Position numbers and translations under genes: made by a program. This document shows, piece by piece, positions 1 through 4,063 of a stretch of DNA of 4,063 nt. The notes beneath the pieces were generated by a model. The model had not been told where the DNA came from, searched no databases, and worked only from the letters and a program-made list of their open reading frames with translations. Location: NCBI RefSeq assembly GCF_057098645.1, contig NZ_JBXSPU010000006.1. One strand, written 5' to 3'. Every line of letters begins with the position of its first letter. Positions within the stretch are counted from its first letter, which is position 1. Origin of the DNA: a plasmid.

Positions 1-810
1 ACGTAGTGTGTACGAAGTTGCGTTGTCAGGAAGCCCGATATTCAGAAGGTCAGCCACACGGCGGGCAGGCTCTGTCAGCCCTCCGTTCCTGAGTTCGGTG
101 CGGGAAATCTGTATTTCCAGGTTAAGCCTGTTAATCAGACGATTCTGTTCGCCGCGTTCTGTTTCGATACCGCGTGTTTCCATCGCACAGGCAGACTTTC
201 CGAGGTGAATACCAGGCGTTTTCTCAAGCCCCTGTCGCTCGTATGAACGATGGTCTATCTCTTCCTGATAACCGGCGTTCGCCAGTGCCCTGTTTGCATG
301 GTCAGCCCATGATGCCCGCCACGTCTCGGCATGTGTCCGGTCGTTCCAGTCCCTGACCTTTCCGCTGAACCCAGCAGGTCCGATAGCCCTCGTGGTCAGC
401 ATGATGTGCGCATGGGGATTTGTTTTATCCATGTGATGGAACGCCACATCAGCAATCATGCCCTGACTGACAAAGTTTTCTCTGACAAAGGCGAGAACGG
501 TTTCCCGTGCGGCATCCTGCGGCAGTTCGTGGGGGATGGCGAGTTCAATTTCCCGCGCAAGTTGTGAGTTCTTCCGGCGTTCGGCCTTCTCAACGGCATT
601 CCAGAGTTCGGCACGGTTCGTACACCAGGCAGGGGCGGTGGCGGGGGTCAGAATCACAGCCTCAGCCACACCGCTTTTGCGGGTGTAGTCGTGAGTCAGT
701 CCGGTACGCTCATCAAGCATCAGTGAACCGGAACGATAGGCAGCGGAAGCTACGGCGCTGTAGCCGCTGCTTCTGGAGATAATTTTCATGCTGAGATGAT
801 AAATCGCCAT
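1..810 (-). CDS. mobA: MobA/MobL-family (MOBQ) relaxase, N-terminal relaxase domain; partial, ORF runs off the left window edge
   Basis: Minus-strand frame is open from ATG (plus 810-808) to position 1, 270 codons with no stop (translated by hand). The product starts MAIYHLSMKIISRSSGYSAVASAAYRSG..., with Tyr at residue 25, a His-rich motif NPHAHIMLT, and ...WADHANRALANAGYQEEIDHRSYERQGLEKTPGIHLGK.... These match my recollection of RSF1010 MobA (MAIYHL..., catalytic Y25, HxH motif, ...WADHANRALERAGHDARIDHRTLEAQGIERLPGVHLG...). An upstream in-frame stop lies at 916-918. The gene is absent from the supplied ORF track because it has no in-window stop. No strong Shine-Dalgarno precedes the ATG. Confidence 0.85.
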   Translation of the reverse strand, partial: MAIYHLSMKIISRSSGYSAVASAAYRSGSLMLDERTGLTHDYTRKSGVAEAVILTPATAPAWCTNRAELWNAVEKAERRKNSQLAREIELAIPHELPQDAARETVLAFVRENFVSQGMIADVAFHHMDKTNPHAHIMLTTRAIGPAGFSGKVRDWNDRTHAETWRASWADHANRALANAGYQEEIDHRSYERQGLEKTPGIHLGKSACAMETRGIETERGEQNRLINRLNLEIQISRTELRNGGLTEPARRVADLLNIGLPDNATSYTLR

Positions 811-988
811 TTCTGCCGTAATGCCTTTTTGTAGTTTTCTTTCAGCCCCGCAGGGCGCACACAATCGAAACGGAGTGGAGATTGTATAAGTGCGCACTTC
901 GTGATTTGCCGTGCATTATGCCAGCTCAGTTTTTAAACTACCAGTGACGCGCTAAAATGCGATTTTTCATCGCGCACGGAGTTACATC
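811..988. other. Candidate oriT and divergent mobA/mobC promoter region with MOBQ-like nic-core motifs
   Basis: Intergenic region between divergent mobA and mobC. Plus strand 887-897 reads TAAGTGCGCAC. Minus strand (reverse complement of 852-860) reads GTGCGCCCT. Both resemble the RSF1010/R1162 nic core TAAGTGCGCCCT as I recall it. The two motifs sit in an imperfect inverted repeat: GCGCACACAAT (855-865) and ATTGTATAAGTGCGC (881-895). A -10-like TAAAAT lies at 953-958 upstream of mobC. Confidence 0.5.
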
Positions 989-1590: not shown

Positions 1591-1594
1591 ATAA

Positions 1595-1678
1595 GTGGAG
1601 CTTTTGGGGGTGAAAGGTGGAGCTTTTGGGGGTGAAAGGTGGAGCTTTTGGGGGTGAAAGGTGGAGCTTTTGGGGGTG
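1595..1678 (+). repeat. Iterons: three perfect tandem 22-bp direct repeats (GTGGAGCTTTTGGGGGTGAAAG) plus a fourth 18-bp partial copy; RepA binding sites of oriV
   Basis: Perfect copies at 1595-1616, 1617-1638 and 1639-1660; partial copy at 1661-1678. The repeats are contiguous with no spacers and lie about 100 bp upstream of repA. A 22-bp unit is roughly two helical turns. Confidence 0.9.
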
Positions 1679-1687
1679 TAATCCACA
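1679..1687 (+). promoter_or_regulatory. DnaA-box-like sequence TAATCCACA (8/9 to consensus) abutting the last iteron
   Basis: TAATCCACA at 1679-1687 has one mismatch to TTATCCACA. The iteron array would then be flanked by DnaA boxes. Confidence 0.35.
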
Positions 1688-1698
1688 GAAAAAGGGGG

Positions 1699-1728
1699 TT
1701 GCAAAAAAAAAACTTCCACCCATATGAT
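1699..1728 (+). promoter_or_regulatory. Candidate sigma70 promoter of repA
   Basis: TTGCAA at 1699-1704, an 18-bp spacer, then TATGAT at 1723-1728, about 50 bp upstream of the repA ATG. Confidence 0.4.
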
Positions 1729-1755
1729 AAGTGGCGTACAGTAAAAAAACGCCAC
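1725..1755. promoter_or_regulatory. Candidate RepA operator: inverted repeat GTGGCGT / ACGCCAC overlapping the repA promoter, with an iteron-like half-site GATAAGTGG
   Basis: GTGGCGT (1731-1737) and ACGCCAC (1749-1755) are inverted repeats separated by 11 nt. GATAAGTGG (1726-1734) matches the left end of the first iteron (GATAAGTGGAGC at 1590-1601). Rep_3 initiators commonly autorepress through such sites. Confidence 0.4.
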
Positions 1756-1776: not shown

Positions 1777-2478
1777 ATGTCAGATCTGATAGCTTACAAA
1801 TCAAACGCCCTTATCGAGGCAAGCTACAAGCTCACTTTGCAGGAACAGCGCTTCCTGCTGGTCTGTATCAGCCGCCTAAAATCCGGAGAAGATTCCCCTT
1901 CGCCGGATGAACAAAAAACCATGACCATCACGGCTGCAGAGTTTCATGATGCCTTTCCTGACATGGGACGGCAGCACGCTGAAGCTAGGCTCAAGGAAGC
2001 GATAGATCGCCTCTGGGACAGGTCAGTAATCATCAAGAACGAGGAAAAACGAGAAGAGTTCCGCTGGGTGCAGTACCGGGCGCAGTATTTCAAAGGTGAG
2101 GCGAAAGTAGATATCACCTTCTCCGATGCCATCATGCCGTATCTGACACAGCTCAAGGGGCAGTTTACGCGGGTAGTCGTGAAGAACGTCTCCAGCCTTT
2201 CCAGCACCTACAGCATCCGCATTTACGAGCTGCTCCAGCAGTTCCGCAGCACCGGTGACAGAACGATAGCTATCGATGATTTCCGAACCATGCTTGCCGT
2301 TGAAGATAAATATCAACAATTCAAAGACTTGAATAAGATGATAATCAAGCCAGCCATCGCCGAACTGAACGAAAAAAGCGATCTGGTTGTAGCTGTTGAG
2401 ACGATCAAAAAGGGGCGCACGGTTGTAGCCCTGCATTTTCGCTTCAAGGAAGACAAACAGATCAAGATGACGATCTAA
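1777..2478 (+). CDS. repA: Rep_3-family plasmid replication initiator (iteron-binding RepA), 233 aa
   Basis: ATG at 1777 and TAA at 2476-2478. The product has MSDLIAYKSNALIEASYKLTLQEQRFLL... and ...ITFSDAIMPYLTQLKGQFT...YSIRIYELL..., matching the pattern of pSC101-type RepA as recalled (MSELVVFKANELAISRYDLTEHETKLIL..., ...LTFSEEILPYLFQLKK...YSMRIYEWLL...). It sits directly downstream of the iterons. Confidence 0.9.
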   Translation: MSDLIAYKSNALIEASYKLTLQEQRFLLVCISRLKSGEDSPSPDEQKTMTITAAEFHDAFPDMGRQHAEARLKEAIDRLWDRSVIIKNEEKREEFRWVQYRAQYFKGEAKVDITFSDAIMPYLTQLKGQFTRVVVKNVSSLSSTYSIRIYELLQQFRSTGDRTIAIDDFRTMLAVEDKYQQFKDLNKMIIKPAIAELNEKSDLVVAVETIKKGRTVVALHFRFKEDKQIKMTI

Positions 2479-2499
2479 AATCGATTTTAAGGCACCTAA

Positions 2500-2523
2500 A
2501 ACGCTCCCTGCTGCGTTTTTTTT
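2500..2523 (+). terminator. Possible weak intrinsic terminator of repA
   Basis: Short stem AACGC (2500-2504) / GCGTT (2513-2517) with an 8-nt loop, followed by a run of 8 T (2516-2523), about 25 nt after the repA stop. The stem is short, so this is low confidence. Confidence 0.3.
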
Positions 2524-2585
2524 GTGTTAGTAGTGCGAAGGTACTATTGAAGTGAAAAATTGCGTCAAAAACGCTCTGATGCAGC

Positions 2586-2612
2586 GAAAAAAGACCCCCC
2601 AATTTTTGGGGG
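2586..2612 (-). terminator. Intrinsic terminator on the minus strand (for the long minus-strand ORF / mobA)
   Basis: On the minus strand: CCCCCAA-AAA-TTGGGGG hairpin (plus 2596-2612), then G, UC and a U7 tract (plus A-run 2586-2592). It lies about 115 nt downstream of the ORF stop at 2726. Confidence 0.5.
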
Positions 2613-2725
2613 CGGAAAAACAAAACTATGCTTGCGTTATGTGAGTGTGCTTCTTGCATTCATCCCTGTCGATGAACATCGACGAACATAACACGATGTT
2701 AAACAAAACAAAATATTGTTCACAT

Positions 2726-4063
2726 TCACTGTGACCAACCGCGATCATGTCTCCTCTCGGTGGTGTGTGTTCGTGCATCTTCCTCGCGCTGCCATTCCTC
2801 CCAGGTACGATTAAAACCCAGCGAGCGGAACAGATGATCCGGCTGTTTTTCTGGTGTGTTGACGGCAGCAAAAAGCGGTGCCTCACGGGTTTTCAGATGA
2901 AACTGCATCAGTTCTGGTGCAGGTGATATGTGGCTGTCTGCATCGTGATTTACGGCAACACCATACCCTGCATACCGTAACCCCTTATCGGTCAGCGCAC
3001 TGATGACCAGATGCCTGTTATCGGCTGAGGGAACGGCAAACGCGGGATACAGCGTACCATTAAGCCGGATAACACCGCCCAGAGAGTCATCCACGCCCAT
3101 GACCAGCAAAAGCTGAAGCTGGCGGGTTTCCCGGTCGACAGAACTCATGACCGGCATCAGCGTCGGTGGCAGACGTCCCTGCATAAAATCCACCTTCCTT
3201 GCCGCTGGTGATGGCATGGCTGGCTGGCGGTCTTCTCCAAGACAGAAAGACTCCGGCCATGTCTTCGGCTGGCGGAGATTGCGGGTATGTTGCGGCCATG
3301 TCTGGCAAACCTGCGTCAGCAGTTGCTCAAAGGTTGCAGAGGAATAAACACGTTGCAGTGGCGGACGTTGGCCGATTTCGCTTCGGTCACAGATATAACC
3401 ACTCCTGTCACGCATTAAATCAACACTCTCAAAGATTCTGGTGCGGTATTTCTCCAGCTCGTTCCCCCAGAGCGTATATTCTCCGTTCCGGTTGTGAAGC
3501 AGAAGGTAACAGGTCATTTCCCCGTTACCAGGCATGGGAGCCTCGCCATACCCCGTAACGACTGCTCTCAGCACCCCTGAATCCATAACGGCATTGTCAT
3601 TTTTCCTGAGCTGCTCCGCGCGACTACGTTCAGTATCTTCCTGTTCCTTCCGGCGCAATTCCTCTTCACGTTTAAGCAACTGGGCTCTGAGAGCTGCAAG
3701 GCCGGATTCCCCCCACTGCTGCCACTGTTTTTCAAATGCCATCTGACTCGCGGGAATGTCCTGTTTCTCCACCTTCCGGTAATGCTGTCGTAATTTTTCC
3801 ATTTGCTGGCTCAGAGACTGGATTTTTCCCTGCTCACTACGGTATTCCGGTGCCGCCCATTGCATCAGGGGAATACGGGAAAAACCGGACGAAAACGGCG
3901 ATGATTTTTTCAGGCTGGCAGCATGGCTCATCGCTTCCTTTCGTTCGGTGTTCAGCTCTTCCCAGCGTCTGCGCGTCGCCTGCATATCTGCCATCATCGA
4001 CATGGCATTACTGGTGAGTTTCCATGCCGAGTTACTGTCCTTCGGCAACGCTTCGATAATGTC
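2726..4063 (-). CDS. mobA: Long ORF with complete 3' end and frame open to the right window edge; most likely the C-terminal ~445 codons of mobA continuing across the junction of a circular molecule, otherwise a 5'-truncated gene of unknown function
   Basis: Minus-strand frame has no stop from 4063 down to TGA at 2726-2728. E. coli-like codon usage (CTG-rich). The supplied track starts at a TTG at 4048, but five further sense codons (DIIEA) precede it up to the edge, and no in-window ATG has a convincing Shine-Dalgarno. The last codon at the right edge (4061-4063) and the mobA codon at the left edge (1-3) are both complete, so on a 4063-bp circle the two ORFs join in frame (...SYTLR|DIIEALPKDSNSAWKL...) into about 715 aa. 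The N-terminal ~150 residues of this part are charged and helical (e.g. LLKREEELRRKEQEDTERSRAEQLRKN); the remainder is globular with no Walker A or other motif I can recognise. Confidence 0.6.
   Translation of the reverse strand, partial: DIIEALPKDSNSAWKLTSNAMSMMADMQATRRRWEELNTERKEAMSHAASLKKSSPFSSGFSRIPLMQWAAPEYRSEQGKIQSLSQQMEKLRQHYRKVEKQDIPASQMAFEKQWQQWGESGLAALRAQLLKREEELRRKEQEDTERSRAEQLRKNDNAVMDSGVLRAVVTGYGEAPMPGNGEMTCYLLLHNRNGEYTLWGNELEKYRTRIFESVDLMRDRSGYICDRSEIGQRPPLQRVYSSATFEQLLTQVCQTWPQHTRNLRQPKTWPESFCLGEDRQPAMPSPAARKVDFMQGRLPPTLMPVMSSVDRETRQLQLLLVMGVDDSLGGVIRLNGTLYPAFAVPSADNRHLVISALTDKGLRYAGYGVAVNHDADSHISPAPELMQFHLKTREAPLFAAVNTPEKQPDHLFRSLGFNRTWEEWQREEDARTHTTERRHDRGWSQ

Follow-up and report, generated by a model that had tools for sequence, protein, structure and literature searches.

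A probable intrinsic terminator downstream of mobA in a pIGWZ12-like plasmid and its likeness to the iteron core

Between the convergent genes repA and mobA of a small Escherichia coli plasmid, a run of six C residues is followed, across a short A/T segment, by a run of five G residues, and part of the resulting palindrome also occurs in the iterons of the replication origin. Is this hairpin a transcription terminator, and for which of the two genes, or is it an additional site at which the initiator protein RepA contacts the plasmid? A first-pass annotation of this DNA had read the hairpin primarily as a terminator for the mobA-strand transcript and had proposed RepA binding as a second, speculative role. 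Here, we weigh both readings, together with further alternatives, against the anatomy of the locus and its variation among related plasmids and metagenome contigs.

The plasmid and its convergent genes

The window—i.e., the whole stretch of DNA that was analyzed—is a complete circular E. coli plasmid of 4063 bp. Eight E. coli plasmid records of 4063 bp, among them pEC224_6, match it at a listed identity of 100.0%, with pEC224_6 deviating from the window by one mismatch, which lies in repA. In PLSDB, 643 records match the window, almost all of them mobilizable, of the MOBQ type and assigned to rep_cluster_1778, and the replicon type Col8282 is named in one matching record. The plasmid belongs to the pIGWZ12-like (MOBQ41, “Col8282”, Rep_3) family. 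This MOBQ41 or pIGWZ12-like group was described by Garcillan-Barcia et al. 2019 (PMC6856555); its members replicate by the theta mode and use their iterons as incompatibility determinants (PMC6856555, citing Zaleski 2006 and 2015), and their origin, located upstream of rep, comprises iterons, an A+T-rich region and DnaA boxes (PMC6856555, citing Zaleski). The words “terminator” and “hairpin” are absent from this MOBQ4 paper (PMC6856555), and nothing is annotated in the hairpin-bearing intergenic region in the plasmid records inspected.

Three genes make up the coding part of the window. The repA gene (1777-2478, plus strand) encodes a Rep_3 initiator comprising a WH1 and a WH2 domain (Rep3_N, 9.3e-41; Rep3_C, 1.1e-21) and is convergent with mobA, while mobC is an annotated CDS at 989-1243 on the plus strand. 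Between mobA and mobC, the oriT region (880-900, plus strand) carries ATAAGTGCGCAC after an inverted repeat, CACAATC...GATTGT; we take ATAAGTGCGCAC to resemble the nick region in R1162 and other plasmids of the MOBQ type. The mobA gene, also annotated as mobQ, lies on the minus strand and crosses the ends of the window as given: it starts at 810, runs through position 1 and continues from 4063 to its stop at 2726, encoding 715 aa. Its 5′ part (1-810, minus strand) contains the relaxase domain (MobA_MobL, E = 2.5e-73), and its 3′ part (2726-4063, minus strand), belonging to the same MOBQ4 relaxase, corresponds to the RefSeq mobQ CDS with the stop at window position 2726. The C-terminal 300 aa of MobA (2729-3628, minus strand) match no Pfam family; at ~45% identity, they resemble the C-terminal region of annotated SogL primases or LPD7-domain proteins, and most of these SogL/LPD7-type matches belong to the 1790 matching records classed as conjugative. 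The SogL records are of the IncI1 type, and the homology of MobA to SogL has been noted before (PMC6856555). Over the mobA stop codon, and pointing antisense into mobA, lies a promoter-like sequence TTCACA-18-GATCAT (2719-2748, plus strand); sites of this kind occur at chance level in the window, with 2 found against 3.2 expected.

A G/C hairpin with a strand-specific U-rich tail

The earlier description of a G5/C6 hairpin between the convergent genes, with a 7-bp stem and a 3-nt loop, agrees with the sequence. Situated between the repA stop (2478, plus strand) and the mobA stop (2726, minus strand), the letters read C6 (2595-2600), AATTTTT (2601-2607) and G5 (2608-2612), such that positions 2596-2602 pair with 2606-2612 around a loop at 2603-2605, and the sixth C (2595) stays outside the stem. 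In the RNA of the minus strand, the hairpin (2596-2612) is CCCCCAA-AAA-UUGGGGG, with five G-C pairs among its 7 bp. Its minimum free energy is nearly the same on either strand, amounting to -11.7 kcal/mol for the minus and -11.4 kcal/mol for the plus strand. The flanks, in contrast, are strand-specific. On the mobA-sense strand, the hairpin is immediately followed by the U-rich tail GUCUUUUUU (2587-2595, minus strand), whereas the plus-strand sequence after the hairpin, CGGAAAAAC, contains 0 U. The tail had previously been given as a U7 tract; a U-rich tail is indeed present, yet it reads G-U-C-UUUUUU (2595->2587) and is thus interrupted, with 7 U in 9 nt. Directly 5′ of the hairpin is another U-rich stretch, GUUUUGUUUUUCCG (2613-2626, minus strand), which is partly conserved (G10 and T11-T13 are invariant in alignment A1) and which forms A-tracts on the plus strand, leaving that strand without a U-tract.

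Lying outside the coding sequence, the hairpin follows the mobA stop codon at a distance of 113 nt, and a consensus scan classed it as terminator-like on the minus strand. No other perfect hairpin in the plasmid has a stem of 7 bp or longer with 5 or more G-C pairs. Two short overlapping ORFs (2462-2659, minus strand; 2560-2691, plus strand) were considered for a coding role and ruled out, since they are broken in relatives by indels of 1, 2 and 10 nt within or close to the hairpin.

On the opposite side of the interval, repA is followed by a terminator-like hairpin of its own (AAAACGC-N8-GCGTTTT, then T8; 2498-2527, plus strand), which is kept in all relatives. The two hairpins face each other at a distance of 58 bp, so that each transcript should stop before becoming antisense to the other gene. 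A weaker second terminator-like hairpin on the minus strand (GCGUUUUUGACGC, then AAUUUUUCAC; 2562-2574), whose conservation is partial, may act as a back-up terminator for transcripts on this strand, and the repA terminator, read from its opposite side (stem plus UUUUAGG), could provide a further one.

To follow the hairpin through the family, 21 whole related plasmids (L002-L022) were fetched along with the record of the window itself (L001) and rotated onto the window. In 20 of these 22 whole plasmids, a C run and a G run still form a stem that is followed on the mobA-sense strand by a U-rich tail, and one exception has its hairpin elsewhere. The fetched plasmids and contigs yielded 15 sequence variants, which were folded one by one because MAFFT had set two of them (L018 and L021) one column out of register. 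All variants have C5/G5 arms except for L008, which has G4, and the 50-nt segment folds with a dG of -8.5 to -14.4. Every variant has a U-rich run directly 3′ on the mobA-sense strand (UUCUUUUUU, AUUUUUUU, UUCCUUUUU or UUAUGUUUU), with 6-7 U out of 9 wherever the hairpin is the outermost structure, as compared with 0-3 U in the tail on the opposite strand. The loop, in contrast, differs in both sequence and length (AAAAAUU, AAAAAAU, GAAAAAUU, AAAAUU, GCAUAU, CGUAUAU or ACUAAGUU), including 1-nt indels. Compensatory covariation is almost absent (RNAalifold term of +0.26; double changes in 2 of 27 pairs), because the G-C pairs of the stem are invariant.

Metagenome contigs were scanned with an anchor placed inside the conserved stretch next to the hairpin and outside the hairpin itself. 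Hairpin and T-tract were present in all 84 evaluable copies, 56-82 nt after the anchor; three further copies failed at a contig end or in Illumina adapter sequence. One metagenome contig (L043) ends in such adapter sequence. A scan of genome assemblies contributed 6 contigs, all near the window family and adding little diversity. The genome-contig matches (L023-L028) carry the titles Clostridiales MAGs, Rhizobium, Xanthobacter, Chryseobacterium and Bradyrhizobium, and look like contamination by this enterobacterial plasmid.

Among the relatives, the window itself does not have the most common form. Most have A at the position corresponding to 2595, which gives an 8-bp stem closed by a G.U pair and followed by the tail UCUUUUUU, and most read UUCUUUUUU; by this comparison, C2595 of the window is the derived state. 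The change removes the closing G.U pair and places a G before the tail UCUUUUUU, and the window variant may therefore terminate slightly less well than the ancestral form. The C2595 variant accounts for 21 of the 84 evaluable metagenome copies, of which 9 come from contigs with iterons of the window type, 9 from contigs in which no iterons were recognized and 3 from contigs with iterons of the ATTTAAGGT type. A more radical replacement is seen in plasmid L020 (NZ_AP022099.1), where the mobA 3′UTR is followed, at the same position as the window hairpin, by UCCCCG-UUUUU-CGGGGA and U8, and a second copy of the conserved stretch by CCCCCC-AAGACCC-GGGGG and U7, indicating that other stem sequences can serve in the same role.

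At the sequence level, the features by which an intrinsic terminator is recognized are thus found together at this locus: a G/C stem-loop with a stem of ~5-12 bp and a loop of 3-8 nt, a 3′ U-tract, a position after a gene and a conserved structure. With a probability that we put at roughly 85%, the hairpin is a Rho-independent terminator acting on minus-strand mobA transcripts, and the terminator proposed by the first-pass annotation gains support from anatomy, from position and from the relatives, in which stem and minus-strand tail are kept and the loop varies. The mobA transcripts would run through the conserved 113-nt 3′ untranslated stretch, the RNA would form the CCCCCAA/UUGGGGG stem-loop, and release would follow at the U-rich tract GUCUUUUUU; that RNA polymerase stops at the hairpin is what we infer from these features. 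Termination at 2587-2612 would keep mobA transcription from entering repA in the antisense direction, with the terminator of repA itself (2498-2527) facing the mobA hairpin. Against this reading stand the near absence of compensatory changes in the stem, the unusual conservation of the 113-nt spacer, and the U-tract of the window, which is set off from the stem by a G, interrupted by a C, and somewhat poorer than the ancestral combination of 8 bp and UCUUUUUU. In addition, a consensus promoter scan of the window found no mobA promoter on the minus strand.

Iteron likeness in a family with swapped replication modules

The origin contains four 22-bp iterons (GGTGGAGCTTTTGGGGGTGAAA; 1594-1681, plus strand), and these are the source of the likeness to the hairpin, in the form of the 9-mer TTTTGGGGG. 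Upstream of the iterons lie a perfect DnaA box (TTATCCACA, 1484-1492) and an A+T-rich stretch (1505-1560) with repeated TTTTTAGATCTT units containing GATC sites, and a second, near-perfect DnaA box (TAATCCACA) is present at 1679-1687; together, DnaA boxes, A+T-rich stretch and iterons are the typical layout of a Rep_3 origin. The 5′ half of the iteron, GGTGGAGC, is found again in the form of an inverted repeat (CCACC...AAGTGG, 1716-1734) that covers the predicted repA promoter. As judged from window positions 1594-1737 and the corresponding segments of L007-L022, this inverted repeat changes along with the iteron 5′ half in relatives, and the 3′ half, ATTTAAGGT, is common to most iteron classes.

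The hairpin had been described as containing a sequence nearly identical to the iteron core, a likeness that is confirmed for the 9-mer and does not extend to the repeat as a whole. TTTTGGGGG occurs five times in the window—in the four iterons and in the hairpin—against 0.07 occurrences expected, and the likeness of the hairpin to the iteron extends to 12 of 14 positions (family D2). The full 22-bp iteron, however, matches the hairpin at just 13 of 22 positions, equal to the weakest of the maxima obtained with shuffled sequences (13-17). The 5′ half GGTGGAGC was sought at the hairpin and is absent there, and the site occurs just once, with ~930 bp between it and the iteron array. Hence, neither a whole-iteron match nor a tandem or inverted arrangement was found at the hairpin, and the same holds for covariation with the iterons, as detailed below.

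Whether the hairpin follows the iterons can be asked in this family since its replication module has been swapped. The repA classes among the fetched plasmids are only ~73% identical at the nucleotide and 75-79% at the amino acid level, and their iterons fall into classes represented by GGTGGAGCTTTTGGGGGT (the window type), GGTGAkrTrATTTAAGGT, GGTGGAGGAATTTAAGGT, GGyAATATGATTTAAGGT and GGTGAACATTTCGGGGGT, whereas the stretch from repA to mobA is 87-99% identical in most of these plasmids. Judging from these comparisons, the family is a mosaic with at least five iteron classes, in which a replication module (RepA plus iterons) has been swapped onto a common mob/intergenic backbone. With different modules on a near-identical backbone, it provides a natural experiment that separates sequence coincidence from function.

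In this experiment, the hairpin does not change in step with the iterons. Of the 15 plasmids with iterons devoid of TTTTGGGGG, ten keep the 9-mer in their hairpin, which in these ten is (A)CCCCCAATTTTTGGGGG or a one-base loop variant thereof, and plasmids with ATTTAAGGT-type iterons and a 75-79% identical RepA carry the identical CCCCCAATTTTTGGGGG hairpin. Among the metagenome copies, the 9-mer is present in the hairpin on contigs with only ATTTAAGGT-type iterons (29 of 37) as well as on contigs with window-type iterons (22 of 24). Where the hairpin sequence does differ (CCCCCATATrCGGGGGG in L018 and L021; CCCCCAACTTAGTGGGGG in L019), TTTT is lost and just the G run, i.e. the stem arm, is left.

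An extra RepA contact within the 3′ arm, with TTTTGGGGG acting as a half-iteron for handcuffing or for coupling termination to replication, would account for a 9-mer that is common to all four iterons and occurs so far above expectation. Yet, the full match is no better than the best hits in shuffled sequence; the missing half, GGTGGAGC, is the one that is repeated in the repA operator and changes with the iterons; the site stands alone and far from the array; the hairpin is unaltered beside ATTTAAGGT-type iterons and their diverged RepA proteins; and the divergent loops of L018, L019 and L021 drop TTTT and keep only the G-run stem. Taken together, this renders such a contact exceedingly improbable, and the secondary RepA site suggested before is not supported, given the chance-level full match, the absent 5′ half and the lack of covariation with iteron type. 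Most likely, the shared TTTTGGGGG is a coincidence arising from a G5 stem arm beside an A/T loop, and a tempting but false link between terminator and iterons is thereby removed.

The conserved mobA 3′UTR and comparison with known systems

The hairpin is preceded by a highly conserved mobA 3′UTR (2627-2725, minus strand) that extends from the mobA stop. As a whole, the 113 nt from the stop to the hairpin (2613-2725) are more conserved than repA, and this holds where repA and iterons are ~73% identical (nt). Such conservation is unusual for a plain 3′UTR and hints at some additional function of this spacer. Contained within it is a 10-bp repeat of variable number with the unit GAACATCGAn (~2668-2690), present in 2 copies in the window, in 3 in L005 and L009-L014, and in 4 in L017; the unit also forms a palindrome, TCGATGAACATCGA. 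RNAalifold keeps three hairpins in the stretch 2613-2725, with a covariation term of ~0. In the middle hairpin, G.U pairs of the window are replaced by G-C or A-U pairs in L018 and L019, changes that are favorable on the mobA-sense strand only.

The conserved stretch and the hairpin travel together as a cassette. In L020, which has additional DNA between repA and mobA, two direct cassette copies, each consisting of an A-run, a C/G hairpin and the conserved stretch (rotated coordinates ~3080-3225 and 3880-4070), have differing hairpin sequences and flank ~650 bp that lack an ORF of at least 60 aa. In L034 (CP099153.1), a 145-kb IncF plasmid, the cassette (within the region 3000-3735) is situated downstream of another minus-strand ORF, which encodes a hypothetical protein of 111 aa for which a Pfam search returned no family. 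Upstream, in loci of the L034 type, the segment after the window's mobC is joined directly to the hairpin region, and origin and repA are consequently missing. On the far side of the small ORF, L034, L042, L046 and L091 have the conserved stretch once more in inverted orientation, cut by IS26 in L034, and inverted copies of the stretch are carried by three metagenome contigs.

These properties invite other readings of the locus. Hairpin and adjacent stretch (2587-2725, ~140 nt) might constitute a portable functional RNA, be it an sRNA derived or processed from the 3′UTR or an element of mRNA stability. This would fit with the conservation of the 113 nt beyond that of repA, with the U-rich sequence that flanks the minus-strand hairpin on either side and together with the poly-U end has the look of an Hfq-binding module, with the strand-specific pair changes in the middle hairpin, and with a cassette that has moved in one piece to a site behind a different ORF (L034, L046) and occurs twice in L020. 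What speaks against it is that an Rfam search with the whole window gave no match at E <= 1, that the covariation term of the stretch is close to zero, that the consensus scan detected no minus-strand promoter inside or just upstream of it, and that a variable-number 10-bp repeat and a 10-nt deletion are tolerated inside it. On balance, we regard an RNA of this kind as unlikely.

Alternatively, the palindrome and the conserved stretch might operate as DNA, either as an ssi-like priming hairpin or as a recombination site for module exchange. Both strands allow the palindrome to form, the swapped repA/iteron module and the mob module meet in this region, and copies of the conserved stretch are direct (L020) or inverted (L034, L042, L046, L091) around short inserts, all of which is consistent with such an element. 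A symmetric DNA hairpin, however, has no need of the strand-asymmetric T-tract that is conserved here, and in L020 the stem sequence is replaced with hairpin and U-tract remaining. XerCD sites have two 11-bp arms separated by a central region of 6-8 bp; in a search by eye for a cer-, psi- or dif-like site in the adjacent stretch, the candidate arms GACGAACATAA (7 of 11) and CGATGTTAAAC (9 of 11 versus psi) turned out to be only 2 bp apart, and this candidate was rejected. A Ter site was likewise rejected, as no GTTGTAAC core was seen by eye in the conserved stretch. We thus hold an element acting at the DNA level to be very unlikely. Nor does mere chance offer a convincing account of the palindrome. 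Stems of this size are not rare by themselves, arising in 87 of 300 dinucleotide shuffles of the plasmid, and shuffling the local 46 nt gave a z of only -0.74; this local test is, however, uninformative because the C and G runs survive the shuffling, and a plasmid-wide hairpin count was used in its place. When a T-tail was required in addition (6 or more T among the 9 nt that follow), such stems appeared in only 8 of 300 shuffles (mean of 0.03), and all 84 evaluable copies retain stem and tail beside a varying loop and varying flanks. A palindrome without function is therefore about as implausible as a contact site for RepA.

The reading that we prefer, an intrinsic terminator for mobA, adds this signal to the annotation of small enterobacterial plasmids that form a very common family; it is an ordinary feature of a known plasmid group, apparently unannotated in the records inspected.

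How does the hairpin compare with known systems? With the iterons and operator half-sites of Rep_3 replicons (pSC101, pPS10, F RepE, R6K pi and pIGWZ12), it has in common the TTTTGGGGG that it shares with the 3′ half of its own plasmid's iterons; it differs from them in lacking the 5′ half, in its 13/22 match, in being a single copy and in showing no covariation with iteron or RepA type. In enterobacterial sRNAs, the Hfq-binding 3′ module is made up of a U-rich stretch, a terminator hairpin and a poly-U tail. The minus strand of the window resembles this order, with GUUUUGUUUUU upstream, then the hairpin and then the U-rich tail, whereas it lacks a promoter and an Rfam family, and its tail is merely U6 after UC. 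A counterpart in position is found in the more distant ColE2-like MOBQ42 plasmids (L030, L031), in which another G/C hairpin, GGGCCACAAAATTTTTTGTGGCCC, follows the stop of the homologous MOBQ4 relaxase gene. It, too, has G/C arms around an A/T loop, but its sequence is unrelated, its arms are longer and its T-tract (GCTCTGCGTTTTC) is weaker. Finally, compared with the Rho-independent terminators of enterobacteria, the window hairpin stands out by its offset and interrupted U-tract and by the conserved 113-nt 3′UTR that precedes it, while it shares with them the G/C stem of 7-8 bp, the short loop, the 3′ U-tract, the position after a stop codon, and the strand specificity conferred by a U tract on the minus strand only.
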